From positions 2,528,001 through 2,592,000 of the forward strand of contig CBDCDC010000002.1 in the NCBI GenBank assembly GCA_965215195.1: 64,000 nucleotides of DNA. Reading direction: 5' to 3'. Below the pieces are notes generated by a model. That model was not told the DNA's origin. It saw only the letters and a program-made list of their open reading frames with translations, and did not search any database. How positions within the stretch are numbered: the stretch's first letter is position 1; each line of letters starts with the position of its first letter. The position numbers and the translations under genes were made by a program. This document shows, in pieces, positions 2,756-18,573 of this stretch. This DNA is from Candidatus Latescibacterota bacterium. GTDB taxonomy: Bacteria > Latescibacterota > UBA2968 > UBA8231.

Positions 2756-2869
2756 CTTACGAACAAATGCGGCGATAAGCCTATTACCTATCTCAACTTA
2801 TTAATTTTTATTGAGTTATTGATTTTGCGGAAGGTAGTCATTCACTTTTTCTCAAACAAAGGAGGCACC

Positions 2870-4747
2870 ATGCGCAAATTGCGTATTTTAGCCATTAGCT
2901 GGTCCATAGCAGCACTCGCCGTCAGTGCAACGTGGGCACAGGACGAGCAGACCTTCCCCTCAGGCCCTGACTACGGAGACGCATTTGAGCTACCTGACAT
3001 CTCCGGCGAGTTCAATCCAATGGTCGTTTCGACTCAGGATGTGGCCTACGACGGCAACGGCAGTGTGGACATTCCCTTCACCGTCAACCAGCGCGCCACG
3101 GTCTGGGTAGTGATCTACCGCAAAGGTAGCAGCGAAACCGGCGAGCGGGGGCCAGCCGGCGCTTGGCTGCGCTTAGAGCCCCAAGATATGTACATCGCCA
3201 CCACCCCAAGTCAGGTCTCCGAAGCCGGCGATGGCACCGCTGCTTGGGACGGCAACGACTGGGAGGGCAATGCCGCGGGAGCCGGCGACTACGAATTTGA
3301 CGTGGTCGCGATCAACAATCTCGACTTGCCGGTGCTCGCCGGTCCTGGAGCGGGCCCCACGGGGTTCACCTTCCCCAACATTGACACCTCGCAGGACCCG
3401 CCCGAAATCTGGGTCCAAGAGTACGAGCGCGAAGTGCCCGACCGGGGCCACACGGCCGGCGACATGGTCCGCGGCACGCTGGGCACGGACTACTTGGCCA
3501 ACCCCAACGCTTGGGAACGCTGGAATTTCGACTTCGGCTTTGAGGGGGCCCGCACCTTGGGCGGCATGCGCATAGACGATCAGGATCCAGAGATTTTTTG
3601 GACCTCCCATCGCCGCGAAGAGTTCGGCGGCCTGTACAAACTCCGCATCAACCGCGCCGCCCAATCTTGGGACCGGGTCACCGACTTCGGCACCAACGGC
3701 CAGTCGCCCAATGCCAACGGCGACCGCATCGTCGAATTTGAGCCCAAAGGCGATGTGGTGTTCAACGCCCTCTGGGGCAAGCAAGAAGTGCCCTTCAACG
3801 CCGTTGAAGTGCGCGACAAGACCACGGGCGAAATTACCCAAGCATTCGACGTGACCGAGTTCTACAACAGGCTCAGAGTCGATGATGACGGCAACGAGAG
3901 CATAACCGGCGAAGGTCCCGCTCAGATTTCGGTGACCGACGACGGCATCTGGGTCTCTTCGTGGGCCCACCCCAACATTCTGCGCCTAGACCACGACGGC
4001 AATGTGGTGTGGGCCAACCGCAACGGCGATTTGTGCGGCGACGCTATTTCCAATGAAGAAGCCGCCGCCATCGGTGCCTTGGGCGGCTCCGCCATAAACA
4101 ACTTGGGCGTCACCGCGGACAAAACCGGCAACATCGTCTTTATCAATGCCGGCAGTCGGGCGGCCACCATAAGTGCCCTCGGACGCGACGGGGCCTGCGC
4201 CTTTGAAATCGAATTCCCCGCTAGCTGGGGCCGGATGCGGCCGGGGGGCACCCGTTTCAACCTATTGCAGGAAGGCGGCCCCTACGACGGTCTCTATACG
4301 AGAAACGGCATGCGCCTAGAGACCTTTTCGTACGGCTACGGGGACGACGAGACCACTAACCCCTACGGCCCCCATCTGCTGCTCTATACGCCTGTGGCCT
4401 TGGCCTCGGGCAAGATGGGTGCCGACGCCACCGCTGTGCTGGAGGTGGCCGCTGCCAACACCCCCGACGCGTATAGTCTGGGCCATGCCACTCCCAACCC
4501 CTTCAACCCGAGCACTGTCATCGAGTTTACTGTGCCCGCTGCCGCAGCACACGTGAAGTTGCAAGTATTCAATGCGGCCGGTCAGCTAGTGGCCACCCTA
4601 GCCGATCAGACCATGGCCGCGGGCAAATACCGGGCCGATTGGGATGCGCGCGATGCCAGCGGCAAGCTGGTCTCCAGCGGCGTTTATTACTACCGCATGG
4701 AGGCGGGCTCGTTCGTCGAAACGCGGGCTATGACCTTCCTCAAATAA
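2870..4747 (+). CDS. Secreted protein: N-terminal FlgD-Ig-like domain, central beta-propeller-like region, C-terminal FlgD-Ig/T9SS type A sorting-like domain
   Basis: AGGAGG RBS before ATG 2870. Signal peptide MRKLRILAISWSIAALAVSATWA. C-terminal PNPFNPST...FNAAGQLVATL...WDARDASG...SSGVYYYRM motif. Confidence 0.8.
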   Translation: MRKLRILAISWSIAALAVSATWAQDEQTFPSGPDYGDAFELPDISGEFNPMVVSTQDVAYDGNGSVDIPFTVNQRATVWVVIYRKGSSETGERGPAGAWLRLEPQDMYIATTPSQVSEAGDGTAAWDGNDWEGNAAGAGDYEFDVVAINNLDLPVLAGPGAGPTGFTFPNIDTSQDPPEIWVQEYEREVPDRGHTAGDMVRGTLGTDYLANPNAWERWNFDFGFEGARTLGGMRIDDQDPEIFWTSHRREEFGGLYKLRINRAAQSWDRVTDFGTNGQSPNANGDRIVEFEPKGDVVFNALWGKQEVPFNAVEVRDKTTGEITQAFDVTEFYNRLRVDDDGNESITGEGPAQISVTDDGIWVSSWAHPNILRLDHDGNVVWANRNGDLCGDAISNEEAAAIGALGGSAINNLGVTADKTGNIVFINAGSRAATISALGRDGACAFEIEFPASWGRMRPGGTRFNLLQEGGPYDGLYTRNGMRLETFSYGYGDDETTNPYGPHLLLYTPVALASGKMGADATAVLEVAAANTPDAYSLGHATPNPFNPSTVIEFTVPAAAAHVKLQVFNAAGQLVATLADQTMAAGKYRADWDARDASGKLVSSGVYYYRMEAGSFVETRAMTFLK

Positions 4748-4777
4748 GGCCCTGCGCCGAGAGCGCAGCCAATCTCA

Positions 4778-4813
4778 AAGAAGCCGTCTTGGGTCTTTCC
4801 AAGACGGCTTCTT
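4778..4813 (+). terminator. Intrinsic terminator-like hairpin
   Basis: Perfect 15-bp inverted repeat AAGAAGCCGTCTTGG / CCAAGACGGCTTCTT with a 6-nt loop, 30 nt after the stop codon. Confidence 0.8.
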
Positions 4814-4839
4814 ACTAGCACCCGAGGGAGGTTAGGGCA

Positions 4840-6558
4840 CTGGCGCCAACAATTAATTTACTGCTCCTAGCCGCCCTCCTCGGCACTGCCATCTGCAATG
4901 CCCAACCCCGCTTCTCCGATGCAACTCGGGAGGCCGGGCTGGCCTTCCGCAATTGGTACGGCAATAACAACGCCCTCACGATCCTAGAAACGACCGGGTC
5001 CGGTGCCGCCTTTTTCGACTACGATGACGACGGCCAGCTCGACCTGTACATCGTCAACGGCGGCTTGGGCTTTACCGGTGTGCGCTATGCCGATCTGCCG
5101 CGCGACGTGCGGCCTCCGGCCAACGGCGAAGTTCCGCACAACGCCCTGTTTCGCAATCGGGGCGACGGCACCTTCTTCAATGTCGGCGAACAGTCCGCTG
5201 TCAATGCTAGCGGCTGGGGCACCGGCTGTGTGGCTGGGGACTACGACAACGATGGCGACGCCGACCTGTACGTCACCTACTACGGCCCCAACCTCCTCTT
5301 TGCCAACCAAGGCGACGGCACCTTTGCCGAGACCGGAGCACAGGCCGAGGCCGACGACGATGGCTACGGCACGGCCTGTGCCTTCGGGGACTACGACAAC
5401 GACGGCGACCTAGACCTTTTTGCCGGCAATTACGTGGTCTTCGATCCACAGACCACCCTGCTGCCCGGCGAGCAGCGCGACGGCTTCTTCGGCGGCCAGC
5501 GCGGAGTGGCCAGCGTAGCCTCGCCCGAAGCGTTTGCCGGCCAGCCCGATGTGCTGTATCGCAACGACGGCCACGGCGCGTTCGCCGATGTCAGCGCTGG
5601 TGCCGGCCTCAACGCCGTCCCGGGCAAGGCACTGGGGGCCACCTTCTTGGACTGGAACGACGACGGCGATCTGGACCTCTACGTGGCCAACGACGCCACT
5701 CCCAACTTCCTCTACACCAACCAAGGCGACGGCACTTTTGCCGAAGAGGCCCTAACCTTGGGCGTAGCCTACGATGCCGATGGCCGACCCGAGGGCAGCA
5801 TGGGGCTGGCCGCCGGCGACTGGGACAACGACGGCGATTTGGACCTAGCGGTGAGCAATTACGAAGGGCAGACCGCCACCCTTCACCGCAACGACGGCCG
5901 CGCCTTCGCCAATATCTCCTTTGCCGCTGGCGTCGCCCGCACCACCTTCATGCCGCTGCAGTGGGGCACAGCTCTCTTCGACTGGGACCGCGATGGCGAT
6001 CTGGATATCTTCATTGCCAACGGCCACGTCACGGCTGCCCTAGAGGATTATTTTCCCCAGTCGAGCTACGCCCAAAAGAACAACCTCTTTCGCAACGATG
6101 GTGTCGCCTTCGTCGATTTGAGTGCGCGAGCCGGCCCGGGTCTGCAGATCGTCAAGTCGAGCCGGGGCACGGCGGTCGGCGATTACGATGGCGACGGCGA
6201 TGAAGATCTTTTCGTGGTCGCCAAAAACGACCTGCCCACCTTACTGCGCAACGACACCGCCAGCGGCAATCACTGGCTAACCATCCGCACCTTGGGCATC
6301 AACAGCAACCGCGACGGCATCGGCACCAGAGTGCGCCTAGTCGCCGGCGGCCAGCAACAGCTCAGAGAAGTGGCCGCCGGCTCTAGCTACCTATCGCACA
6401 ACAGCCTGTGGCTCACTTTCGGACTAGGGCCGAGCGTCGCAGTGGATACCCTCGAAATCCGCTGGCCCAGCGGTTTAATCGACCAATACACCCAAGTGGC
6501 GGGAGATCGCTTTGTGGTAGTAGAAGAAGGCCGGGGCATGGCCGCTGCAAAGCACTGA
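4840..6558 (+). CDS. CRTAC1-family / FG-GAP repeat protein with C-terminal ASPIC/UnbV domain; probable CTG start
   Basis: Repeated GDYDNDGDxDL motifs and a C-terminal SNRDGIG...GSSYLS...FGLG...IRWPSG. The frame is open upstream of the tracked start (5065) to TAG at 4816-4818 and encodes a signal peptide plus the first repeat. GGAGG lies 8 nt before CTG 4840. Confidence 0.85.
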   Translation: MAPTINLLLLAALLGTAICNAQPRFSDATREAGLAFRNWYGNNNALTILETTGSGAAFFDYDDDGQLDLYIVNGGLGFTGVRYADLPRDVRPPANGEVPHNALFRNRGDGTFFNVGEQSAVNASGWGTGCVAGDYDNDGDADLYVTYYGPNLLFANQGDGTFAETGAQAEADDDGYGTACAFGDYDNDGDLDLFAGNYVVFDPQTTLLPGEQRDGFFGGQRGVASVASPEAFAGQPDVLYRNDGHGAFADVSAGAGLNAVPGKALGATFLDWNDDGDLDLYVANDATPNFLYTNQGDGTFAEEALTLGVAYDADGRPEGSMGLAAGDWDNDGDLDLAVSNYEGQTATLHRNDGRAFANISFAAGVARTTFMPLQWGTALFDWDRDGDLDIFIANGHVTAALEDYFPQSSYAQKNNLFRNDGVAFVDLSARAGPGLQIVKSSRGTAVGDYDGDGDEDLFVVAKNDLPTLLRNDTASGNHWLTIRTLGINSNRDGIGTRVRLVAGGQQQLREVAAGSSYLSHNSLWLTFGLGPSVAVDTLEIRWPSGLIDQYTQVAGDRFVVVEEGRGMAAAKH

Positions 6559-6560
6559 AC

Positions 6561-7712
6561 CTAGGGTTTTTCCCCCATAGCGCGGAGGATTTGTTGCGCC
6601 ATGCGCCGCAAGTGATCATCGTCGCCGGTGGCGATAATGGCGCGGTACTGCTGGACGGCGGCCGCCTCATTGCCCTGCTCCTGCAGGATGGTGGCCAACC
6701 CAAATCGCGGGCCGGCAAAGTCGGGCTTGAGGCGGATGGCCTGCTGGTAGGCCTGGACCGCAGCAACCCTATCGCCGCGGGCGTAGAGCGCGGCCCCTAG
6801 GTGGTTGTAGGCGCGGACATGGCCCGGGCGCAGGCGCAGAGCAGCACCGAACGCTTGCACGGCCTCGTGGATCCGCCCCTGCTTTTTGCAGGCCAGACCC
6901 AAGTTGAAGTGGGCTTGGGCGTAGTCGGGGTTTAGTTCGAGGGCGCGTTGCAAGAGTGCCACCGCGCCAATGACATCACCGCGACTGTAGAGGATGTGGC
7001 CTAAATTGTTGTGGGCGCGGCTGTGCTTGGGGTCTAGGGAGATGATCTGGCGGTACTGGGCGCTGGCCTCTGCTGCATGGCCCCGCTCATAGAGCAGCAG
7101 GGCCAAACTGTAGCGGGCTGGAACGTAGGTAGAATCGGCCTGAATGGCGCGCCGAAAGGATTGGACCGCTTTCTCCGAATCGCCTTTTTTTTTAAGGGCC
7201 AAGCCCAAGTTGTAGTGCGCCTGTACATGGTCGCGCTCTAGCGCGACTGCCCGGCTGCACGCGGCAATGGCCCCTTCCACATCGCCTAGTCCGTAGAGGA
7301 TGGCCCCTAGGTCGCTGTGGGCTTGGGCCAATGCAGGGTCCAGCGCAATGGCGCGGCCATAGGACCGCACCGCGCCCTCGACATCCCGGCGGCTGTACAG
7401 CACATTGCCTAGATAGCTGTGCGCCAGCGCGTGCTCGGGATCGAGGCGCAGGACCGTGCGGAATGCTGTTAGAGCACCGTCGGCATCGCCGAGCTGAAAG
7501 AGGGCGACGCCCAGCTCGAGGTGGGCGGCGAGGCGCTGGGGATCGAGCGCAATGGCGCGGCCATAGGACCGCACCGCGCCCTCCAAGTCGCCTTTCTCCA
7601 AGAGCACCTTGGCGCTGTGATGAGCAATAGCCGCCGCCGCGGAAGCGTCCCTAGCCTGAGCGTACGCACTGGCGACGGCAGCAAGCAGAATAAAAAGAAC
7701 CAAGCGAGCCAT
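6561..7712 (-). CDS. Tetratricopeptide repeat protein, secreted
   Basis: Signal peptide followed by about ten 34-aa repeats (AHxNLG...G....A...Y..A..L.P). Confidence 0.9.
   Translation of the reverse strand: MARLVLFILLAAVASAYAQARDASAAAAIAHHSAKVLLEKGDLEGAVRSYGRAIALDPQRLAAHLELGVALFQLGDADGALTAFRTVLRLDPEHALAHSYLGNVLYSRRDVEGAVRSYGRAIALDPALAQAHSDLGAILYGLGDVEGAIAACSRAVALERDHVQAHYNLGLALKKKGDSEKAVQSFRRAIQADSTYVPARYSLALLLYERGHAAEASAQYRQIISLDPKHSRAHNNLGHILYSRGDVIGAVALLQRALELNPDYAQAHFNLGLACKKQGRIHEAVQAFGAALRLRPGHVRAYNHLGAALYARGDRVAAVQAYQQAIRLKPDFAGPRFGLATILQEQGNEAAAVQQYRAIIATGDDDHLRRMAQQILRAMGEKP
7342..7583. repeat. Exact 38-bp direct repeat inside the TPR gene (7342-7379 and 7546-7583)
   Basis: AGCGCAATGGCGCGGCCATAGGACCGCACCGCGCCCTC occurs twice, 204 nt (two TPR units) apart. 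Confidence 0.9.
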
Positions 7713-7782: not shown

Positions 7783-9723
7783 ATGAGCGGTTCGCCGCAG
7801 ATCACCGCGCGCGCTATTGTCCTCGGTGCCCTGACCATAGCCGCCAACTTCTACTACATTGTCAACGTGGGCCAGCGCCTAGGGATAGGCAGCTACGTCC
7901 ACTCGCAATTCCCCATGGCCACTTTCATGCCCTTTGTGCTGTGGCTCTTCCTCAATACCGCGCTCAGGGCACTCTGGCCGCGCCTAGCGCTCAGCCGCGG
8001 CGAATTGCTGACCCTGTTCTCCATGCTCTGGGTGGTGGGTACCATTCCGCAGCTAGGCTGGATGACCTACTGGGCCTCGATCATGGGGGCACCAAGTTAC
8101 TTTGCCACGGCCGAGAACCAGTGGGAAGAGACCTTCTTCGACTACCTTCCCTGGCACGTCTTTGCCAATACCGCTCCCCGGGTAATCGATCCATTTTGGT
8201 TTGGCCTGCCCGAAGGAGGCTCCATTCCCTATGACGGGTGGATTGGTGCCATCGGCCAATGGCTCGGCGTTTCCATGGGCATGGTGGTCTTCGGCTTCTG
8301 CCTAATCGCCCTTTTCCACAAACAGTGGGTCGAGGCCGAGAAGCTGACCTTTCCACTGGCGCAAATGCCCCTAGACCTGACCCGCGGCTTTGAAGACAAG
8401 CAGCGGCCCGAGCTATTCCGCAAGCCCGCCTTCTGGATTGGCTGCGCCCTAGTTTTCCTGCCCATACTCTACAATATCGCCACGTACTTCGCCCTAGGCC
8501 TGCCACCCATCGAATTCTACTGGAAATTCTACGATATTCACTTGACGCCGGACTTTTTTCTGACCGTGCGCATCCTGCCCCTGATCATGGCCGTGACCTA
8601 TCTGTGTCCAGTGGATATCCTCGGCAGCCTGATCTTTTTCCACTTACTCGCTGCGCTCAAGATAGCCATAATGAAGCGAACCGGCTTTTCCATTGGCGGC
8701 TTTGCCGTGGGCGCGGCCGGCCAGCAGCCCGAGGCGCAAAACATCCTCTACATGGAGAGCTACGGCGCCCTAGTCTTCATCGGCCTGTGGTCCATCTGGG
8801 TGGCCCGCCGCCACTTGCGTCAGGTGTGGCATCAGGTGCGCAGCGGCGAGGGCGAGCCGCGCCAAGTCGCGCTCTACCGGCTGGCCCTCGCTGGCCTGAT
8901 TCTGTCGGCGCTCAGCGTCATCGGCTGGGGGGTGCAACTGGGCATGAGCTTGCCGGTGGCTATGGGCGCTTTCCTGCTGATGACGCTGACCTACTTCGTC
9001 ATAGCCAAACTCGTCGCCGCCACCGGCTTTGCCTATCTCTTGCCCAATAAGCCCCATATCAAGGGCGATTCCTTCCTCATCGAGCTAGTCGGTTCGGCCT
9101 TCCAATCGCCGCGCAGCCTAGTGGCGTTTAAGGTATTCACCAGCAATGCCTTCTTCGGCACCTTCCGCATCCCGGCTTGGCCGGCTCTGCCCCACTGCTT
9201 CCGCCTGTTCTCCCTAGAGCGGCAGCCCGGGCGGCTGACGGCCATGGTCCTGATCGCCTTTCCCATCGGATTTGTCGCATTGGCCATTGAGACGATCAGC
9301 CTCGCCTATGAAGAGGGCGGCCTGCTTTTCCTCGGCGACAAGGCCAACTGGGTCTTCCAAGATATGGTTTATCTGCTCAACAACCCCATGCTGCCCGACC
9401 CGGGCAAGTGGGCGGTGTGGCTCTTAGGCTTTGGCGAAGCCGCGCTCATCGCCCTGCTGCGCGGCTATTTCCACTGGTTCCCCCTCCATCCCATCGGCCT
9501 AGCCTTTCAGCACACCTTCGGTCTCCGCCTCTACTGGTTCAGTCTGTTCATCGTGTGGATTGTCAAAGTAACTCTGCTGCGCTACGGCGGGACCAGGGCC
9601 TACCGCGCTGGCAAACCCCTGTTCTACGGCTTGGCCATCGGTTACGTGGTCGGGGTAGTTTTTTCCATGGTCGTAGATTTGATCTGGTTCCCGGCCGAGG
9701 GACACCGCATGCACGGGTGGTAA
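7783..9723 (+). CDS. Polytopic membrane protein of DUF6785/DUF6784 type (OPT-like putative transporter)
   Basis: 646 aa with many TM segments. Family-like motifs include LSRGEL, KQWVEAEKLTFPLAQMP, WFPLHPIG and LLRYGG..AYR.GKPLFYGL. The family was recognised from memory, not searched. Confidence 0.7.
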   Translation: MSGSPQITARAIVLGALTIAANFYYIVNVGQRLGIGSYVHSQFPMATFMPFVLWLFLNTALRALWPRLALSRGELLTLFSMLWVVGTIPQLGWMTYWASIMGAPSYFATAENQWEETFFDYLPWHVFANTAPRVIDPFWFGLPEGGSIPYDGWIGAIGQWLGVSMGMVVFGFCLIALFHKQWVEAEKLTFPLAQMPLDLTRGFEDKQRPELFRKPAFWIGCALVFLPILYNIATYFALGLPPIEFYWKFYDIHLTPDFFLTVRILPLIMAVTYLCPVDILGSLIFFHLLAALKIAIMKRTGFSIGGFAVGAAGQQPEAQNILYMESYGALVFIGLWSIWVARRHLRQVWHQVRSGEGEPRQVALYRLALAGLILSALSVIGWGVQLGMSLPVAMGAFLLMTLTYFVIAKLVAATGFAYLLPNKPHIKGDSFLIELVGSAFQSPRSLVAFKVFTSNAFFGTFRIPAWPALPHCFRLFSLERQPGRLTAMVLIAFPIGFVALAIETISLAYEEGGLLFLGDKANWVFQDMVYLLNNPMLPDPGKWAVWLLGFGEAALIALLRGYFHWFPLHPIGLAFQHTFGLRLYWFSLFIVWIVKVTLLRYGGTRAYRAGKPLFYGLAIGYVVGVVFSMVVDLIWFPAEGHRMHGW

Positions 9724-10480: not shown

Positions 10481-11533
10481 CTAGCCAGCTACTTCTCTGA
10501 AAACGCGAATAAAATTGCCGCCCATAATCCCGGCGATCGCCTCGGCCTGGTGCCCGCGCTGCTGCAAGCCCTCGACGATATTTTGGCTCTTGCCAATATC
10601 TTCTAACCCGACCGGCCGGGCGTTGAGCTGGTCGAGCAGGTCCGTACCAAAGCCAACGTGGGCAGATCCAACCAGCGCAACTATGTAATCAATGTGATCC
10701 AGCAATATCTCCAGACTGGCTTTTTCATCCCCGGGTCCCAGCGGCATCGGACTAGGGCATATCAGGCCCCCGGTAGCGGCCACCGCCCGGAGCTGGTCGT
10801 CGCTCAAGTAGCGCACGGTGTCCCGCAGCGCCCGCGCATTGCCGTGCGTGGCAACGACCGGCGCACGGGCGACTTCCAGCGCGTCCCAAAAACCGGTCTC
10901 AATTAGATGCGTGATATCGACGAGCATGCCCAGCCGGTTCATCTCGCCAATGATCTGCCGGCCAGCCTCGGTCAGCCGGCCCGGCGGATCGACCTTGCTG
11001 TCGTAAAGCCGCATGGTCGGCCCGTTCCACACCTGCGTCGCCGTGCCCAAGTCGTTGCGTCCTTCGTGTACCAAGCCGAGGTGCCGCAACCCCAAGCGAT
11101 AGAGCGTACGCAATACGCTCAAGTCGCCCTTGAGCGCATCGCCGCCCTCCAAGCCTAAAACAAAGGCGACTTTCCCACTCTTGTGTGCCTCTTCGATGTG
11201 ATCGGCAGTAGTGGCCAACACTGCGTATTCCCCGGCTTCGCCTTCGAGTTGGCGATGTAGATAGTCGATGATTCGCAAAACCTCCTGCAGGGGATGCCGA
11301 CTGCCGTGAGGACCGCCGATCCTCGCATCTGGCACCCAACAAGCGGTTAGCTGAGCCGCGACCCCACCGGCGCACATCAGGGGAACATCGGTCAGGCCGC
11401 CCAAACCTTGGTGCAGCTTGCGCCCCGACTTGAAGGCCAGATCCAAGGTATGGCCGTGGGCGTCAATGATCGGCACTGTTAGGGAATTGTCCATGCTCGT
11501 CGCCGCGTGGATATCCACTCTATTGTCTTTCAC
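10481..11533 (-). CDS. Membrane dipeptidase family (peptidase M19) protein
   Basis: Motifs DAHGH, LGLEGG, VDITH, ATHGNA, LDHIDY, HVGFGTD and GGNF. The GTG start overlaps the upstream TGA; an alternative ATG is at 11494. Confidence 0.85.
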   Translation of the reverse strand: MKDNRVDIHAATSMDNSLTVPIIDAHGHTLDLAFKSGRKLHQGLGGLTDVPLMCAGGVAAQLTACWVPDARIGGPHGSRHPLQEVLRIIDYLHRQLEGEAGEYAVLATTADHIEEAHKSGKVAFVLGLEGGDALKGDLSVLRTLYRLGLRHLGLVHEGRNDLGTATQVWNGPTMRLYDSKVDPPGRLTEAGRQIIGEMNRLGMLVDITHLIETGFWDALEVARAPVVATHGNARALRDTVRYLSDDQLRAVAATGGLICPSPMPLGPGDEKASLEILLDHIDYIVALVGSAHVGFGTDLLDQLNARPVGLEDIGKSQNIVEGLQQRGHQAEAIAGIMGGNFIRVFREVAG

Positions 11534-12483
11534 GGGGCCTCCGCGGCCCTCCGGCGCGTTGCCTGTCGGCGTGCTTCGCCCGCGGCCGTGAGTTTGCCCT
11601 CTTCATCGTAGTAGCCGTCCTGCTGTCCGGCGACTAGAGGCCCGTACAGATCGGGCCGGCGTGCTACAAAGCGCCTTTTGTCCCGTTGCGGCAAGTGGAC
11701 GTACTGTACGCTGACGCATTCGGTTTCGTACTTCTCCAAGTGCAATTCCCCGCTGGGGCTGATGATTACTGCGCTCCAAGTGTTGGCAATGACAATCCAG
11801 CAGTGATTGTCCCGGGCCCGCCAGCGCATTTTCTCGGTGTTCTCCGGCCCGCCGCTACCGTCCATGGGAATGAAAATGACCTGTGCCCCCTGGACCCCCA
11901 GCACCGCGCAATTGTCCACGGTGCGGTCGCTACACAGCAGAAAGCCCAACCGGCCTAGGGGCGTGTCGAACGGTTGCAGCGCACGCCCTGGCGTGATGGC
12001 GTACTCTCCCGCGGTGGTAATTTTGCGGTAATGGGCGATCACCTCGCCTTGCGGATCGAGCATGACACAGGCGTTGAACAGGGTCTGGTCTTCCCGTTCC
12101 AGAAAGCCGAATATCAGGTAAATTCCCAATTCTTTGCACAACGCGCCCGCTCGCTGGATATAGGAGCCATCCGGCGCGGTCTGGGCGATTTTTAGCATAT
12201 CCGCCAATTGGGATGTGGGGTCTTCGTTAAACACATAACCATCTAGCACGGACTCGGGCGCGACAATCACTTGGGCGCGACGCCCGGCCGCTTCCCGGAC
12301 ATAGACCTCCAGCCGGCAGAAGTTATCCTCCAATTCCCAAGGGGCCGATTTCAAGGTGACAATTCCAACCAGCATGCTCTGTCTCCTATCAGAGGGTAAC
12401 GGCAAGCGGTCTTGGTCCAACTCCACCAGTTCTGGCGTCGGGTAGACGAGAGCAGGTATGGTTTTGGCCTGTAACTCGTCCAT
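11530..12483 (-). CDS. Carbon-nitrogen hydrolase (nitrilase superfamily)
   Basis: Glu-Lys-Cys triad contexts VAPES, HYRKI and GFLLCSD. Confidence 0.85.
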   Translation of the reverse strand: MDELQAKTIPALVYPTPELVELDQDRLPLPSDRRQSMLVGIVTLKSAPWELEDNFCRLEVYVREAAGRRAQVIVAPESVLDGYVFNEDPTSQLADMLKIAQTAPDGSYIQRAGALCKELGIYLIFGFLEREDQTLFNACVMLDPQGEVIAHYRKITTAGEYAITPGRALQPFDTPLGRLGFLLCSDRTVDNCAVLGVQGAQVIFIPMDGSGGPENTEKMRWRARDNHCWIVIANTWSAVIISPSGELHLEKYETECVSVQYVHLPQRDKRRFVARRPDLYGPLVAGQQDGYYDEEGKLTAAGEARRQATRRRAAEAP

Positions 12484-12497
12484 TGGTCTTTTCTCCT

Positions 12498-13979
12498 TTA
12501 GTACCTATCTCCGGTTCGATAGGCGTACAGGCTCGTGGCGTTGTCGGCGCGAAAGTGCAAGCGGATACTCCGGCCGACAAAAGGCGTCAGGTCGCGCCGC
12601 TCCTTTCCCCACGTAACCTCGCAATCCGTCTCGTCTCCCTGTTCCAACCCATTGCACGAGTCAAAGTCAAAGCCCTCCGGCACGGAGGCCTCCGCGATGA
12701 CGCGCACTTGCAGGCATCCGAATAAACAAGTGGCATTGACCCCGAGCCTAGGACCGCTGACGGCAATGGGTTCGGTCATCAATTCGCCGCCCCGGATGCC
12801 GCAGCGCAGCGCCACAAAGCGATCCTTGCGCAGCGTCACTAGGCCAATCGCACTGGTGGAATTGCCCTCGGTGCCGTGGGCTTGGGGACGGCCCGAATAC
12901 CACATGTACAGTGTGTCCCCCACAAGAGCGGGGGGATTGGACGACAGGGAGGACCAAGCCCCGTCCCAAGTGCCCGGCGAGCCGACCGGCAAAAATTCCT
13001 CGCGCCGGCCCACCCGCTGCCAGTGGTCCAGATGCCGCGCCGTAGCCAGTTGCACCGGGCCCAGCTCGGTGGCCGAGTGCAGCATGCCGATAAAACCAAT
13101 GTACTGGCTGCCATAGACAAAGGGCGTCATCGCGTATAGCTGATCGCTGGGATCGTCGAAATCGTCCGGTTTGAGAATGGTCCTCAGGGGCGTCCAGTGG
13201 ATGAAATCCTCGCTGCTGGACAGGGCAATGACGCGGCGGTACTGCTTCCACTCGAGCACGAAGTGGTCCATCAGCGTTTCAAAGCGGCGCGAAACCGCTA
13301 GGTAGCGCTGCTGCATGGGATCGTACACCAGTGCGCCGGCATCGCCGGAGCGGGGTACGCAATTGCGGTCGTCCAGCCGCCAGTGAATGCCGTCTGGCGA
13401 GAAGGCCGCGTACATGCCGTGGCGGTCGCGGATTTTATCGAAGAGCACTTGGCGCAGGGCATTGCGCACTTGGCGCTCCATAGCGGGCGTTTCCTGCGGA
13501 GCGTCCGCGGTGGGGCGCTGTTGGTACATACCCATCTTATACCGTTTGGACGGATCTTGCTCCTGCGGGTCTTTGACCACGCCCCACGGATCTAGGCCGT
13601 AGTGAACACCCGGCGGCGGATAGACGATATTGTTGGCGCGGGAGCCCTCGCAGGCCACGAGCCCCAGTTCCGGCTTTTCCCACGCGATGCCTTCTTTTGA
13701 GGTGGCGTAACACATAAAGTGCCCTTGGCCAGTGCGCTCGTACAGGTCGTTGTTGATCGCATAATACCACATCTTGAAGCGGTTTTCGTCGTCGTCGTAG
13801 AGCACCGAGCCCCACAGCTGCACGGCTTTCCCCTCCCAAGGCCGATCGGGTTTTAATACCGGCTCGGTCTGTACGCGCTCGGGCCGCTGCACCTTGCGCA
13901 CAAAGCCGGGGTGATCTTGTACTTCCACGTCATCGAGAAATAGGTGCAAATTAGGGTCGTAAAAATTATTGCCGTTCAC
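12498..13979 (-). CDS. Uncharacterised GH32/GH43-like five-bladed beta-propeller protein
   Basis: Likely GTG start at 13979 with GGAG upstream. Motifs LFLDD, PDRPWEG, FKMWY, CYATSKEGIAWEKP, RYKM, SPDGIHW and LRKDRFV. Confidence 0.7.
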   Translation of the reverse strand: MNGNNFYDPNLHLFLDDVEVQDHPGFVRKVQRPERVQTEPVLKPDRPWEGKAVQLWGSVLYDDDENRFKMWYYAINNDLYERTGQGHFMCYATSKEGIAWEKPELGLVACEGSRANNIVYPPPGVHYGLDPWGVVKDPQEQDPSKRYKMGMYQQRPTADAPQETPAMERQVRNALRQVLFDKIRDRHGMYAAFSPDGIHWRLDDRNCVPRSGDAGALVYDPMQQRYLAVSRRFETLMDHFVLEWKQYRRVIALSSSEDFIHWTPLRTILKPDDFDDPSDQLYAMTPFVYGSQYIGFIGMLHSATELGPVQLATARHLDHWQRVGRREEFLPVGSPGTWDGAWSSLSSNPPALVGDTLYMWYSGRPQAHGTEGNSTSAIGLVTLRKDRFVALRCGIRGGELMTEPIAVSGPRLGVNATCLFGCLQVRVIAEASVPEGFDFDSCNGLEQGDETDCEVTWGKERRDLTPFVGRSIRLHFRADNATSLYAYRTGDRY

Positions 13980-15063
13980 GGTTCCGCTCCACAGATTGGC
14001 CGGTGATATAGGATTTGGTGATAGCGATAATGAGCTCCACGTCGTGGCGCGCTTCCGCGAGGGGCGTGCGGCACACCACCCCCTCGGTGATACAGGCGTG
14101 GAAGTGGCGCAACTCCGCAGTGAAGGCACTCTCCCAGGGAATGGCCGGCTCTTTGCGGTAGCTGGTGCCGTGCTCGTCAATGCCCTGGACAGTCAGGGTG
14201 GAGAGTACGCGGCGCGAAAAACCGGTCGGATAGGTGAGCAGCACGCGCTTGTCGTCGCCGTAGATTTCGAGGGTCTCGCGAAAATCCCACAGCTTTTCCA
14301 AGTCAACCCGACTGATGACGCAGCGCGCGCCGTTGGCGTATTCCAGCACCGCGGTAATCGCTCGGTTGTTCTTCCAGATTTCAGTGCTAACCACGGCGCG
14401 GGGCAAGCCCACCATCGCGCGCAAGCTGTAGAGATCGTGGATCAGGCCATAGGTGATGCCGCAGACCGGCTCAGCGCACACGAAAAGGTCGCCAAAAGCC
14501 TGGCGCAGTGTTTCTCTATAGGCGCGCCGGCGTTGGGCGGCGATTGCGGGGCGTTGGGCATCAGCGTATTGCACGTTGAAGTGGTCGAGGTGAAGCTCAT
14601 TGCTCGGGTGTAGGTGGTTGATCTGGATAAAACTGTAATCCAAACCCTCCACCTCTCTTTTGGCCAGCGCAAAGGCCGGATCGTAGGCCTTCATGTAGGC
14701 CGCTTGGCCCACGGTGCCAGCTTCGCGCATGGCCGCGATCATGGCGTCGGCTTCTTGCATGGAAGCGCAGATGGGCTTTTCGATGAGCACGTGTTTGCCG
14801 GCCGCAAAAGCAGCGATGGCCGCGTCGCTTTTGGGGTCGGTATGGCAAAGGAGGACCGCGTCGATATCAGCGCTCAGCAAGTCGTCGAGGGTGCTGACGT
14901 GCCGAGGGATGGCAAAGCGTTGGGCGACATAGGCCGCTTGGTCGGGGGACAGGTCGCAGACAACGGGAACGGCAAATTCCTCGTCGAGTTCCAACAGGTT
15001 GGGTAGGTGCTGGACCTGAGCTATGGCCCCACAGCCCAAAACACCAATGCGTACGCGGGCCAT
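13966..15063 (-). CDS. Gfo/Idh/MocA family oxidoreductase
   Basis: Rossmann motif GVLGCGAIA and AGKHVLIEKP; GGAG RBS. Confidence 0.9.
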   Translation of the reverse strand: MARVRIGVLGCGAIAQVQHLPNLLELDEEFAVPVVCDLSPDQAAYVAQRFAIPRHVSTLDDLLSADIDAVLLCHTDPKSDAAIAAFAAGKHVLIEKPICASMQEADAMIAAMREAGTVGQAAYMKAYDPAFALAKREVEGLDYSFIQINHLHPSNELHLDHFNVQYADAQRPAIAAQRRRAYRETLRQAFGDLFVCAEPVCGITYGLIHDLYSLRAMVGLPRAVVSTEIWKNNRAITAVLEYANGARCVISRVDLEKLWDFRETLEIYGDDKRVLLTYPTGFSRRVLSTLTVQGIDEHGTSYRKEPAIPWESAFTAELRHFHACITEGVVCRTPLAEARHDVELIIAITKSYITGQSVERNRERQ

Positions 15064-15203
15064 GTAAAGAACTCCTGCTAATGCTCTCCGGTTGCCAAGG
15101 GTCGTTTGAGTTAAGCCCCTTGAAATCCAGAGCCGTATTTAGTTACTTAGAATCCTACGTCGTCAATATAAGTCGTCAGCCAGTGCGATCACAGGAAAAC
15201 GAG

Positions 15204-16061
15204 ATGATGACCCCGGAACAGCGCTATTTTTTTGATCTAACCGGTTATCTCCACTTGCGCGGCGTTCTGCGCGAGAGCGAACTCCGATCCGCCCAAGATG
15301 CGGCCCAGCGCTACATCGACACGCCGCCGGACCAAGTGCCGGAGGGCTTTCGCATTGATTTCAACCGCGAGCACTTCAACTGGTATCTCTACGCCTTCGC
15401 CTTTGACAAAGCCCTCGAACGGCTGACAGTGCATCCTCAAACTTGGCCCATCCTGCTCGAACTGACCGGCGGCAAACCCCGGCTAGGCGGCGGCAATATG
15501 ATGGTCGACGTCCACGGCAAACCCTTTCATCCCCTGCATTCGGGACGCGAATCAGCCCGGCGGAAAGGCCAGCCAGGCTGGCGCCGCAGTTTTGTCAAGG
15601 ATGGCAAAATATACAACAATGACTTGGTGTTTTTCTTTTATCTGTCCGATGTTTTCCCCGGCGACGGCGGACTCATTGTCGTACCCGGCTCGCACAAGTC
15701 CAATTTCCCGCGCGAAAACCACTACTTCTATCCGCAAAGCTACACCGCAGACGGGGGATACAACGACGATTATTTTAGCACCGCAGTGCCCGAAGGAGTG
15801 ACCAATTTTACCCCCAGAGCCGGCGACGTGGTCATCATGTCCGAACACCTCACCCACGGCGCACTCTCTTGGGTTCCCAAAGACCGGGAGCGCCGCTTTC
15901 TCACCCTGCGCTATAGCGTGCAGCACATCGGCCCCTCCGACCCTTTTCCCGACGGCGTCAAGGCCAAATTGTCGCCAGAAACCTTGGAACTGATCGCCGT
16001 GCGCGATTTTAAGGACCGCAAGGAAATTACCACGCGCACTACAATAGAGTTGACTGTATGA
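15204..16061 (+). CDS. PhyH-family Fe(II)/2-oxoglutarate-dependent enzyme, copy 1 (H-x-G motif)
   Basis: N-terminal FDLTGYLHL, GGLIVVPGSHK, AGDVVI, distal THG and RR motifs. The first metal motif is LHSG. ATG at 15204 or 15207. Confidence 0.85.
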   Translation: MMTPEQRYFFDLTGYLHLRGVLRESELRSAQDAAQRYIDTPPDQVPEGFRIDFNREHFNWYLYAFAFDKALERLTVHPQTWPILLELTGGKPRLGGGNMMVDVHGKPFHPLHSGRESARRKGQPGWRRSFVKDGKIYNNDLVFFFYLSDVFPGDGGLIVVPGSHKSNFPRENHYFYPQSYTADGGYNDDYFSTAVPEGVTNFTPRAGDVVIMSEHLTHGALSWVPKDRERRFLTLRYSVQHIGPSDPFPDGVKAKLSPETLELIAVRDFKDRKEITTRTTIELTV

Positions 16062-16080
16062 ACGAACCGAGAGGTGCGAC

Positions 16081-16938
16081 ATGACTCCCGAGCAGCGCTA
16101 CTTCTTTGACCTGACCGGCTACCTCCACCTCAAAGGCGTGCTGCAAGGAGCAGAATTAAAAGCAGCCCAAGACGCGGCTCAGTGCTACATTGACACGCCC
16201 CTAGAGGAAGTGCCCGCCGGCCTCGAAATCAATCTCGAGCGCGAACATTTCAACTGGTATATCAATGCCTTTGCCTTTGACAAGGCCCTCGAAGCCCTGA
16301 CCCTACACCGCAAAACTTGGCCCATTCTCAAGGAGTTGACCGACGATCGGCCGCGCCTGACTAGCGGCAATCTGATGGTCGATGTCCACGGCAAGCCCTT
16401 CCATCCCCTGCACTCCGGCGTACCCGGGGCACCGGCCCGCAACCCAGAGCAAGGACGCTACAGCGCGGTCGGCGGCAGAATCCAGTGCAATGACCTAGTC
16501 TTCTTCTTCTACCTGACCGACGTCTATCCCGGCGACGGGGGGCTTATCATTCTGCCCTGCAGCCACAAGAGCCACTTCGACTATCCGCGGTCGCTTTTCT
16601 ATCCCGAGAGCTATACGGCCGAGGAGGGGTACAACGACAAATACTTTAGCACCCAAGTGCCCGAGGGCGTGCTCAATGTAACGCCCAAGGCCGGCGATGT
16701 GGTCATCATCTCCGAATTGGTCACCCACGGCGCACTCTCTTGGGTGCCCCAAGACCGGGACCGCCGCTTTCTCACCCTGCGCTACATGCAGCAGCACGAA
16801 AGTGTGCGCGGCGGCCTGGACCGTTTCTCCCCGGAGGTCAAGGCGCGACTTGCGCCGGAAACCCTCGAACTGGCTGCACCGGCTTCCTTTAGCCACACCA
16901 AGGAAATCGTCAAACGGGAAGTCGTCGCGCTGAGCTGA
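16081..16938 (+). CDS. PhyH-family Fe(II)/2-oxoglutarate-dependent enzyme, copy 2 (H-x-G motif), tandem paralog
   Basis: GAGG RBS. Collinear with copy 1 over the full length, with identical MTPEQRYFFDLTGYLHL, MVDVHGKPFHPLHSG and THGALSWVP. Confidence 0.85.
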   Translation: MTPEQRYFFDLTGYLHLKGVLQGAELKAAQDAAQCYIDTPLEEVPAGLEINLEREHFNWYINAFAFDKALEALTLHRKTWPILKELTDDRPRLTSGNLMVDVHGKPFHPLHSGVPGAPARNPEQGRYSAVGGRIQCNDLVFFFYLTDVYPGDGGLIILPCSHKSHFDYPRSLFYPESYTAEEGYNDKYFSTQVPEGVLNVTPKAGDVVIISELVTHGALSWVPQDRDRRFLTLRYMQQHESVRGGLDRFSPEVKARLAPETLELAAPASFSHTKEIVKREVVALS

Positions 16939-16942
16939 GCAC

Positions 16943-17128
16943 TCAAGCGATCTCTTCTAGAGCAATGGCCCGGGTCCGAGTAGGTGTGACCCGCTGCATC
17001 TTGAGCGGCAGGGCGATGAAAAAGACCCGGTCTTTTGTGAGTTGATCCAATCCCGCGAGGGCGATTGCCGTAGAGAGGGCTGGCCATCGCCCGCTGCTGG
17101 TCGGTCCGTTTGTGGTCTGCTCCCTCAA
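16943..17128 (-). pseudogene. Probable remnant of lipoprotein signal peptidase II (lspA-like)
   Basis: 61-aa ORF with a TTG start overlapping the sulfatase stop. Contains AIALAGLDQLTK, resembling the LspA N-terminal DQxTK motif, followed by RVFFIALPL. The NxG, GNxxDR and FNxAD motifs are absent. Confidence 0.5.
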
Positions 17129-18573
17129 TTTTCATCCGCGGCCAGCGGCCCCACTACCCCCAAACGCAGCGCGGGATAGAGCGTTGCAAAAAGTGGCGTG
17201 TCGCCGGTATCGCGGGCATAACGCCAATACAGCCGCGTCATTTTTTTGACCTGCTCGGCATAGGCGGGATCCCGCGCCAGATTCTTCATCTCGTATGGGT
17301 CTTCGTCTAGCTGGTACAATTCGTCGAAATCAAAGCCGTTAAACACAAACTTCCACGCCCCGTCCCACACCACCCGCTGCGTCAGCCGGTGGCGGTTGCC
17401 AAAGTATTCGGCATACCCTCGGGTCCATTCGTCGGCGACATGGGCCGGTTCGCGCAACAGCCCGACAAAAGAGCGGGAATCGGCCACCTCAATAGGCTCG
17501 CAGCCGGCCAGTTCCAACAGGGTCGGGCACAGATCGTGCAAACCGACTCGGCCCGCGCAAACAGCATTCCTCGCAATGTTAGGGCCACGCACAATAAGCG
17601 GCACCTGATACACTTCTTCAAAAGCGGAAATATCCTTGAAAAACAGACCGTGCGCTCCCAACAAATCCCCGTGGTCGGCGCACAGTACAACGATCGCGTC
17701 GTCGAGTTTGCCCGCCTCTGCGAGAAAGTCGATCATCCGCCCGAACTGGGCATCTATTTCGCTAATCGACGCGAAATAACACGCCCGCGCCGTGCGCTTG
17801 TGCTCCTCGTTGAGCTGCCGCCAAATGCCCTGCGCCCGGCGATAAAGCCCCGGCCGATCCGCCAGATCATCATCGGCATTGGGCGGCGGCGGCAGCGCTT
17901 GAGCGGCATAGCGGTCGTAAAACTCGCGGCCGGCAATAAAGGGATCGTGCGGCTCCTGAAAACTGACGAAAGCACACCACGGATCGTCGCCTTGTACTAC
18001 CTCCTCCAGATAGCGCAGCGCCAGCGTCGTCGTCAGCCCCATGCCGCGCTCTTCGGCTGGCCGATCGGTCACCCCGTAGAGCAGATGGGGCCCATAGCCG
18101 TGCGGCTCTTCGAGATAATGCGCCGGCTCGCACGCCGGCCGCAGCGGCTTACCGCCCAGCACCTCGGCGACCAATGCATCGTAGAGCGCACCACCGACGA
18201 CTCCGTTGACCTGCCAGCCGAAGCGGCCCAGCGCATTATCGCGCTCAATGTGCCACTTGCCGAAATACCCGGTGCGATAGCCAGCGTCGACCATGCGCTC
18301 GGCCCAATGCGCCTTGTCGGGGCGCAGCGCATGCAAATCCGGCACCTTGGGATAGAGCACCTCCAGCACCCCGTGGTTGTGCGGCATCAGCCCGGTCATC
18401 AGGCTCGCCCGGGTCGGCGAGCAAATGTTATTGGGCGTATAGGCGCGAGTAAAACGCACCCCCTCCCCGGTCAACCGATCCAAGTGCGGAGTTTGACAGA
18501 CGTGATCCGGCTCGAGCACGCGGGCCTGCATCTGGTCGGCCATCAAAAAGAGAATGTTGGGCCTATTGCTCAT
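17125..18573 (-). CDS. Sulfatase (formylglycine-dependent, Cys type), cytoplasmic
   Basis: RPNILFLMADQ, CSPTRASLMTG (CxPxR), GKWH, PHDP, ADHGD and ELYQLDEDPYE. No signal peptide. Confidence 0.92.
   Translation of the reverse strand: MSNRPNILFLMADQMQARVLEPDHVCQTPHLDRLTGEGVRFTRAYTPNNICSPTRASLMTGLMPHNHGVLEVLYPKVPDLHALRPDKAHWAERMVDAGYRTGYFGKWHIERDNALGRFGWQVNGVVGGALYDALVAEVLGGKPLRPACEPAHYLEEPHGYGPHLLYGVTDRPAEERGMGLTTTLALRYLEEVVQGDDPWCAFVSFQEPHDPFIAGREFYDRYAAQALPPPPNADDDLADRPGLYRRAQGIWRQLNEEHKRTARACYFASISEIDAQFGRMIDFLAEAGKLDDAIVVLCADHGDLLGAHGLFFKDISAFEEVYQVPLIVRGPNIARNAVCAGRVGLHDLCPTLLELAGCEPIEVADSRSFVGLLREPAHVADEWTRGYAEYFGNRHRLTQRVVWDGAWKFVFNGFDFDELYQLDEDPYEMKNLARDPAYAEQVKKMTRLYWRYARDTGDTPLFATLYPALRLGVVGPLAADEN

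Follow-up and report, generated by a model that had tools for sequence, protein, structure and literature searches.

The tandem genes at 15204-16061 and 16081-16938 of the window (the whole 64,000-nucleotide stretch analysed here, C2:2528001-2592000 of a Latescibacterota assembly of 6.13 Mb in two contigs) probably encode soluble enzymes of the HygX-like branch of the PhyH family, that is, Fe(II)- and 2-oxoglutarate (2OG)-dependent oxygenases with a relocated metal-site acid, likely acting on two different substrates. They are new members of a branch already known from HygX, the hygromycin B orthoester synthase, found here without the HygX lysine and in a catabolic setting. The first-pass annotation of this DNA had interpreted the pair as free-standing radical halogenases, on the strength of a Gly at the position of the usual acidic ligand; that interpretation is very probably wrong.

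Family assignment of the gene pair

Paralogue 1 (P0001; 15204-16061, + strand) and paralogue 2 (P0002; 16081-16938, + strand) each encode 285 residues and matched Pfam PF05721 with E-values of 1.5e-9 and 1.5e-7, respectively, both exceeding the Pfam cut-off. Paralogue 2 begins 19 nt past the stop codon of paralogue 1, and the two proteins were identical at 186 of 286 positions (65%, BLASTP), which bears out the earlier description of two tandem PhyH-fold paralogues. The true start of paralogue 1 may be the second ATG, at 15207; the first codon position was Ile in one orthologue (L007). With NCBIfam, the only match of the pair was the ectoine hydroxylase model, far below threshold (19 bits against a cut-off of 336). 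A promoter and terminator scan of 14900-17300 returned sites no more numerous than in shuffled sequence.

The PDB was searched with protein 1 (phmmer), giving 6 matches at E ≤ 10, of which HygX from Streptomyces hygroscopicus (4XC9/4XCA/4XCB/4ZPI) was the top one (E 4.9e-10). Homologues were then scored (439 at E ≤ 1e-5 among 1560 candidates, 120 listed), and 63 homologues and both window proteins were aligned (alignment A1, 65 sequences). The A1 profile gave 12 PDB matches at E ≤ 1, with HygX first (E 3.5e-16), followed by EctD, SnoK, human PhyH, DhiD, FtbO and PrhA. The AlphaFold2 (AF2) model of protein 1, built on A1, had a mean predicted local distance difference test (pLDDT) score of 92.8. 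Foldseek placed the HygX chains at the top for this model (E 3.4e-16), and VIA-align also gave HygX as the best match (Z 22.1, root-mean-square deviation 2.8, 220 residues); Z-scores of 20-21 were obtained as well for a proline hydroxylase, GriE and EctD. The pair has the PhyH double-stranded beta-helix fold, and HygX is its nearest solved relative.

Metal-site residues and their conservation

The HygX metal motif is H-X-G...E-X3-H, with the acid relocated, and Lys137 fills the gap left by the Gly (2026 review, PMC13374393); residue 137, in the numbering of the profile alignment, is the Lys that the review names. The profile alignment set H112, G114, E214 and H218 of paralogue 1 on H102, G104, E202 and H206 of HygX, and the pair is therefore assigned the HygX motif arrangement. 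In paralogue 1, H112-S-G114 (15537-15545, + strand), aligned on HygX H102-G-G104, would supply the proximal His ligand, with Gly replacing the usual acid, and E214-H-L-T-H218 (15843-15857, + strand), aligned on HygX E202-A-L-M-H206, would supply the relocated carboxylate and the distal His. R230 (15891-15893, + strand) is invariant in A1, aligned with an Arg of HygX, and is the putative binder of the 2OG C5-carboxylate, a role which we take it to have from its position 12 residues past the distal His, as in PhyH-family enzymes. The equivalent motifs of paralogue 2, H111-S-G113 (16411-16419, + strand) and E212-L-V-T-H216 (16714-16728, + strand), were read from the sequence and from the alignment of the two proteins, the second also by residue counting (16717-16731 reads LVTHG). 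Both proteins have the HygX-type H-x-G first motif (HSG in each) together with E-x3-H (EHLTH in gene 1, ELVTH in gene 2). The canonical H-x-D/E...H triad is absent from the pair, which has Gly at the acid position and lies inside a non-canonical clade. A single-sequence alignment that equated HygX H102 with H104 of paralogue 1 was rejected, as H104 is not conserved in the family, whereas at least 90% of A1 has His at position 112.

The first-pass annotation had placed L-H-S-G at 15537-15545 and 16411-16419: HSG lies exactly there, and the Leu is one codon upstream of each range. Its distal His and 2OG-binding Arg region were recovered, as THG and DRxRRFLTLRY, in both proteins.

The four motif columns (112, 114, 214 and 218) were filled in 116 of the 120 listed homologues. 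His112 was present in 114 of these 116, an acid at position 114 in none, and Glu214 and His218 in all 116. Position 114 was G in 74 homologues, A in 32, L in 4, R in 3, T in 2 and Q in 1; the loss of the acid that had been noted in the two genes thus extends to every homologue with filled columns, and its replacement is not specifically Gly. E214 (gene 1) and E212 (gene 2) are most likely the third metal ligand. This had been raised in the first-pass annotation as a secondary option, through the Glu of the SExxTHG motifs, and it is favoured by homology and covariation; the supposed novelty of such a site falls away, the arrangement having already been described for HygX.

Searching 1.84 billion cluster representatives (50% identity) with the family profile gave 2071 matches at E ≤ 1e-3, 781 at ≤ 1e-10 and 105 at ≤ 1e-30. 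Among the best 150 representatives, 57 had all four columns, and the relocated pattern was found in 51 of these. Five of the 57 had His at both ligand positions and an acid at neither site, with L, G or K at the position before the distal His, and one was without the first His. These acid-less representatives may be misaligned or may be truly carboxylate-free.

Covariation of the acid positions across the host PhyH repertoire

The host genome gave 112 Pfam PF05721 matches and, by an iterative hidden Markov model search of six-frame open reading frames (ORFs) that was run to convergence, 119 PhyH paralogues. Aligned to one profile, 95 of the 119 had H-x-D/E without Glu at the distal His minus 4, 19 had this Glu without the first acid, 1 had both and 4 had neither. 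One of the last four has Asp at the distal His minus 4, and another has Asp one residue further away; when Asp or Glu was counted, the numbers were 93 canonical, 20 relocated, 3 both and 3 neither. The two acids almost excluded each other with either counting (Fisher's exact test, P about 1e-16). A FastTree phylogeny of 118 paralogues (one short sequence dropped) resolved a single clade of 24 with support of 0.912, made up of 20 relocated-acid paralogues, 3 with neither acid and 1 with both, and holding the pair. All 93 purely canonical paralogues fell outside it, as did two canonical paralogues with an incidental Asp.

The acid thus sits at one position or the other, and the switch marks a single old branch, with the pair inside it. 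The inverse covariation of the Glu with the canonical acid is what would be seen were Glu214 the third ligand, and is difficult to reconcile with a halogenase site, in which a carboxylate ligand has to be absent.

The HygX-like clade makes up about one in five of the PhyH paralogues of this genome, many of which are arranged in tandem or separated by only a few kb. As tandem PhyH copies are frequent here, the arrangement of the pair is ordinary. Some members of the clade have unusual motifs. A paralogue of about 508 residues (L082:4545-6068, + strand; C1:453491-455068), with a long N-terminal extension, lacks an acid at both ligand positions (LHSPA ... LFLASAQAHG) and is a better candidate than the pair for a carboxylate-free, halogenase-like site. 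Another reads W-H-S-H-E, lacks a Glu ahead of the distal His and may have a 3-His or shifted-acid site, and a further one has both H-S-D and T-E-A-L-T-H-G and looks intermediate between the triad types. These last two paralogues lie at L086:5855-6601 (+ strand; C1:1132851-1133600) and L085:5030-5863 (+ strand; C1:1116520-1117362).

Divergent loop and age of the duplication

Representative genomes were scanned for relatives of the pair; 129 were found and 80 loci were kept. The closest relatives are in metagenome bins labelled Latescibacterota and a few labelled Gemmatimonadetes, and more distant ones are in Poribacteria, Planctomycetota and Chloroflexota. Adjacent copies of both paralogues occur in 18 of the 80 loci (L001-L017 and L021). 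These loci include a marine bin with 79-82% identity, which indicates that the duplication is old.

Consensus sequences of 18 gene-1 and 19 gene-2 orthologues were compared in 20-residue segments. Identity was lowest anywhere in the segments spanning residues 111-140 (0.25-0.30), where 40-50% of positions were fixed differently in each orthologue group, in agreement with the earlier remark that divergence is sharpest right after HSG. The loop concerned comprises residues 113-135 of paralogue 1 (SGRESARRKGQPGWRRSFVKDGK; 15540-15608, + strand) and, from the same comparison, residues 112-133 of paralogue 2 (SGVPGAPARNPEQGRYSAVGGR; 16414-16479, + strand). Further stretches that diverge between the groups are 161-180 and 241-260. 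The model of protein 1 is less confident in the loop (pLDDT 83 for residues 111-120 and 72 for 121-130). Conservation of the loop within each group implies that selection acts on it in both copies, consistent with two substrate specificities, and the sequences point to paralogues that act on two related but different substrates.

Proposed mechanism

In the mechanism proposed, the residue two positions after the first His would be small or neutral (Gly here), and the Glu four before the distal His would give the carboxylate, forming a 2-His-1-Glu site from H112/E214/H218 in gene 1 and H111/E212/H216 in gene 2. R230 (R228 in gene 2) would hold the far carboxylate of 2OG. As the relocated Glu would complete the site, a ferryl intermediate would be expected to form and, with no need for halide, to oxidise an organic substrate at a C-H or O-H bond. 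The paralogues, an old duplication retained as a pair, differ chiefly in the post-His loop, in the post-PGSHK stretch and near residues 241-260.

Gene neighbourhood

Upstream of the pair, and divergent from it, lies a Gfo/Idh/MocA oxidoreductase gene (13966-15063, - strand; Pfam PF01408 and PF02894). It is followed by a gene for a GH32-like protein with a five-bladed propeller and a beta-sandwich (12498-13958, - strand; assigned by fold search, no Pfam match), a C-N hydrolase gene (11530-12483) and an M19 dipeptidase gene (10481-11533), and the four form one apparent operon. A sulfatase gene (17125-18573, - strand; Pfam PF00884, E 2e-40) is convergent with the pair. Among the 18 pair loci, the Gfo/Idh/MocA gene was upstream in 14 and a sulfatase downstream, at variable distance, in 8; in 6 (L002, L007, L013, L014, L015 and L021) a paralogue of the GH32-like protein, 28-29% identical, lies between the two PhyH genes.

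The listed ORF of the GH32-like protein (560 residues) runs to 14180, so that its first ~70 codons (about 215 nt) overlap the 3' end of the Gfo gene; for this reason the real start is probably near 13958 or later. No match was found for the protein in Pfam or in a PDB sequence search, and the sequence lead was a protein-atlas cluster named GH32. Glyco_hydro_32N was matched by 2 of the 6 homologues scanned. The AF2 model of the protein (pLDDT 94.8) retrieved GH32 levanases and invertases, GH130 phosphorylases, GH43 enzymes and a GalNAc deacetylase in Foldseek (best E 7.3e-13). The family is widespread and has no Pfam model (861 homologues at E ≤ 1e-10 among 8000 candidates scored).

Since the GH32-like, Gfo/Idh/MocA and sulfatase genes are neighbours and HygX acts on a glycoside (PMC13374393), a sugar-derived substrate was favoured; together these weakly suggest a derivative of a sugar or glycoside that is imported for catabolism. 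The group-specific conserved loops, with the glycoside hydrolase-like, oxidoreductase and sulfatase neighbours, agree with the first-pass proposal of two substrates in a catabolic context rather than one of nonribosomal peptide or polyketide synthesis.

Weighing of the interpretations

Several observations weigh against the reading of the pair as HygX-like oxygenases acting on sugar derivatives. Identity between the pair and HygX is only 21-25%, and PhyH-fold enzymes with the canonical triad score only about one Z unit below HygX (FtmOx1 21.1, EvdO1 20.9, SnoN 20.9). The profile alignment places V142 of protein 1 at the position of HygX Lys137, and 111 of 116 homologues have V or I there; the pair thus lacks the gap-filling Lys of HygX-type enzymes, and its second sphere differs from that of HygX. 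Five paralogues of this genome, in a separate subclade, have K or R at this position. The HygX motif is taken from a review (PMC13374393) and not from the primary structure paper, and we infer ligation by E214 from homology, invariance and covariation. As to the substrate, the M19 dipeptidase and C-N hydrolase share the divergent operon with the sugar-type genes. When neighbours were clustered over 71 of the 80 loci (9 were dropped because the PhyH gene was missed by the gene caller), no neighbour family was shared across phyla, conservation being confined to close lineages. In Poribacteria, an enolase-superfamily gene immediately precedes the orthologue in 19 of the 20 loci in which that gene family occurs, and another PhyH gene lies downstream. 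Such lineage-limited neighbours and the Poribacteria enolase gene are as compatible with amino-acid-derived substrates as with sugars. Near other members of the clade, where 97 of 177 ORFs in 9 of 18 regions were annotated, the neighbours included sulfatases, Gfo/Idh/MocA, enolase-superfamily, DHDPS-family, xylose-isomerase-like and lactonase genes and more PhyH genes.

That the pair are halogenases, with a halide on the iron at the Gly, a substrate radical that is chlorinated or brominated and E214 as a second-sphere residue, is extremely unlikely. Both genes do have H-x-G/A without the acid, position 114 is G or A in 106 of 116 homologues, the absence of the gap-filling Lys (V142) may leave the space beside the metal free, and the relatives are mostly from marine or sponge-type metagenome bins, thus from halide-rich settings (habitat as suggested by record titles). 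However, the Glu occupies the HygX ligand position in 116 of 116 homologues and covaries inversely with the canonical acid over the 119 paralogues, as a replacement ligand would; in 10 of the 116, position 114 is L, R, T or Q, which would leave no room for a halide. No halogenase was found among the 12 PDB sequence matches (E ≤ 1), the Foldseek rows up to rank 50 or the 50 VIA entries listed, which is weak evidence. A carboxylate that completes the triad had been named in the first-pass annotation as the observation that would speak against halogenation, and homology and covariation predict one here; with this Glu at the relocated-acid position, and HygX as the best match in sequence and fold, the halogenase proposal is not supported.

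Two further explanations were weighed. The genes are adjacent, 19 nt apart, and have stayed together in 18 related loci although they have diverged by 35%, and the TlxIJ heterodimer 7vbq was among the fold matches (Z 20.2), so the products might form an obligate heterodimer on one substrate, as do the PhyH-fold oxygenases TlxI and TlxJ. This is very unlikely, given that all predicted catalytic residues are kept in both copies, that another gene is inserted between them in 6 related loci, and that most of the other loci retrieved, including those in Poribacteria, Planctomycetota and Chloroflexota bins, have a single copy of this subfamily. Plausible, if on the unlikely side, is, with the metal site unchanged, a nitrogenous small molecule from the host (an amino-acid, betaine or dipeptide derivative) as substrate instead of a sugar. 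It would fit the M19 dipeptidase and C-N hydrolase of the divergent operon, which are conserved in related loci, the enolase-superfamily genes upstream of the Poribacteria orthologue (the 19 of 20 loci above) and near 4 other clade members (L082, L084, L086 and L088), and the fold matches to the amino-acid hydroxylases GriE, proline hydroxylase H11 and EctD (Z about 20-21). It sits poorly with a closest characterised relative, HygX, that acts on a glycoside, with the Gfo/Idh/MocA and sulfatase neighbours, which point to carbohydrates, and with a GH32-like gene interleaved with the pair in 6 loci, the fold matches of which, among the rows listed, are only to carbohydrate-active enzymes. Relocated-acid oxygenases with sugar-derived substrates are thus the reading retained.

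Relation to known systems

The pair resembles HygX in its PhyH fold, in H-x-G...E-x3-H, in a PGSHK-like motif and in the Arg after the distal His. It differs in the loop after H-x-G, which is 7 residues shorter in the pair (profile alignment), and HygX carries out an orthoester-forming glycoside cyclisation within an antibiotic gene cluster that is absent here, where the neighbours are of catabolic type. Fe(II)/2OG halogenases also have a small residue replacing the acid after the first His (H-x-A in SyrB2, H-x-G in WelO5 and BesD), whereas the pair keeps a Glu at the HygX relocated-acid position, is not linked to a carrier protein and lies in no biosynthetic cluster. Canonical PhyH hydroxylases (human PhyH, 2A1X; EctD, 4MHR/3EMR) share the Pfam family, the fold and the N-terminal and PGSH motifs with the pair, but have H-x-D...H; the 95 such paralogues of this genome lie outside the clade of the pair.

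Among the domain families of sponge-associated Poribacteria, PhyH was reported to be the most abundant, with no known function for most of its members (Kamke et al., 2014, PMC3909097). The family there is likewise very large and diverse, and Poribacteria relatives of the pair are 47-53% identical to it; metal-site variants are not separated in the accessible portion of that account, and the host here is a Latescibacterota bacterium. According to a 2025 report, several PhyH-family enzymes, one of them from Poribacteria, have 2'-O-methyl nucleoside demethylase activity (PMC12709175). A literature search covering few subscription journals returned no account of a HygX-type metal site in any enzyme other than HygX, or in the PhyH expansions of symbionts, and HygX was the only studied member found of the relocated-carboxylate branch (~2,000 proteins at E ≤ 1e-3).

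Implications

Halogenase mining often relies on H-x-G alone. In the PhyH family this motif can mark a clade in which the acid has moved to E-x3-H, and halogenase screens should therefore check the E-x3-H position. The same simple rule splits the PhyH expansions of sponge-type symbionts (here 95 canonical against about 20 HygX-like paralogues), and the split points to tractable enzyme pairs from which the function of these expansions may be learned.

It is also conceivable, though unlikely, that the pair is part of a large relocated-carboxylate branch doing non-hydroxylating chemistry on host glycans in marine or sponge-type bacteria. The moved Glu may alter which iron sites stand open, and possible reactions would be oxidative C-O bond formation or cleavage, O-demethylation or oxidative removal of sulfate esters, alongside GH32-like enzymes and sulfatases. 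If true, this would be a catabolic use of chemistry so far known only from antibiotic biosynthesis; were the HygX-like group to act on glycans, chemistry known from a single antibiotic pathway would also have a part in the carbon turnover of marine symbioses.

Other features of the window and related loci

A DUF6785/DUF6784 protein is encoded at 7783-9723 (+ strand), about 5.5 kb upstream of the pair. A copy (L089:2660-4753, + strand) lies directly upstream of the closest in-genome paralogue of the pair, C2:1012802-1013641, and copies with 27-29% identity flank distant PhyH relatives in four genomes (L022 and L026-L028), directly upstream only in L022. The protein may be a linked transporter or membrane partner.

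Many eukaryote-like repeat proteins, of a kind typical of sponge-associated bacteria, are encoded at 2819-7712 of the window and in loci L081, L084 and L085, and contain FG-GAP/ASPIC, TPR, LRR, Kelch and VWA/VIT domains and FlgD-Ig/CHU_C tails.

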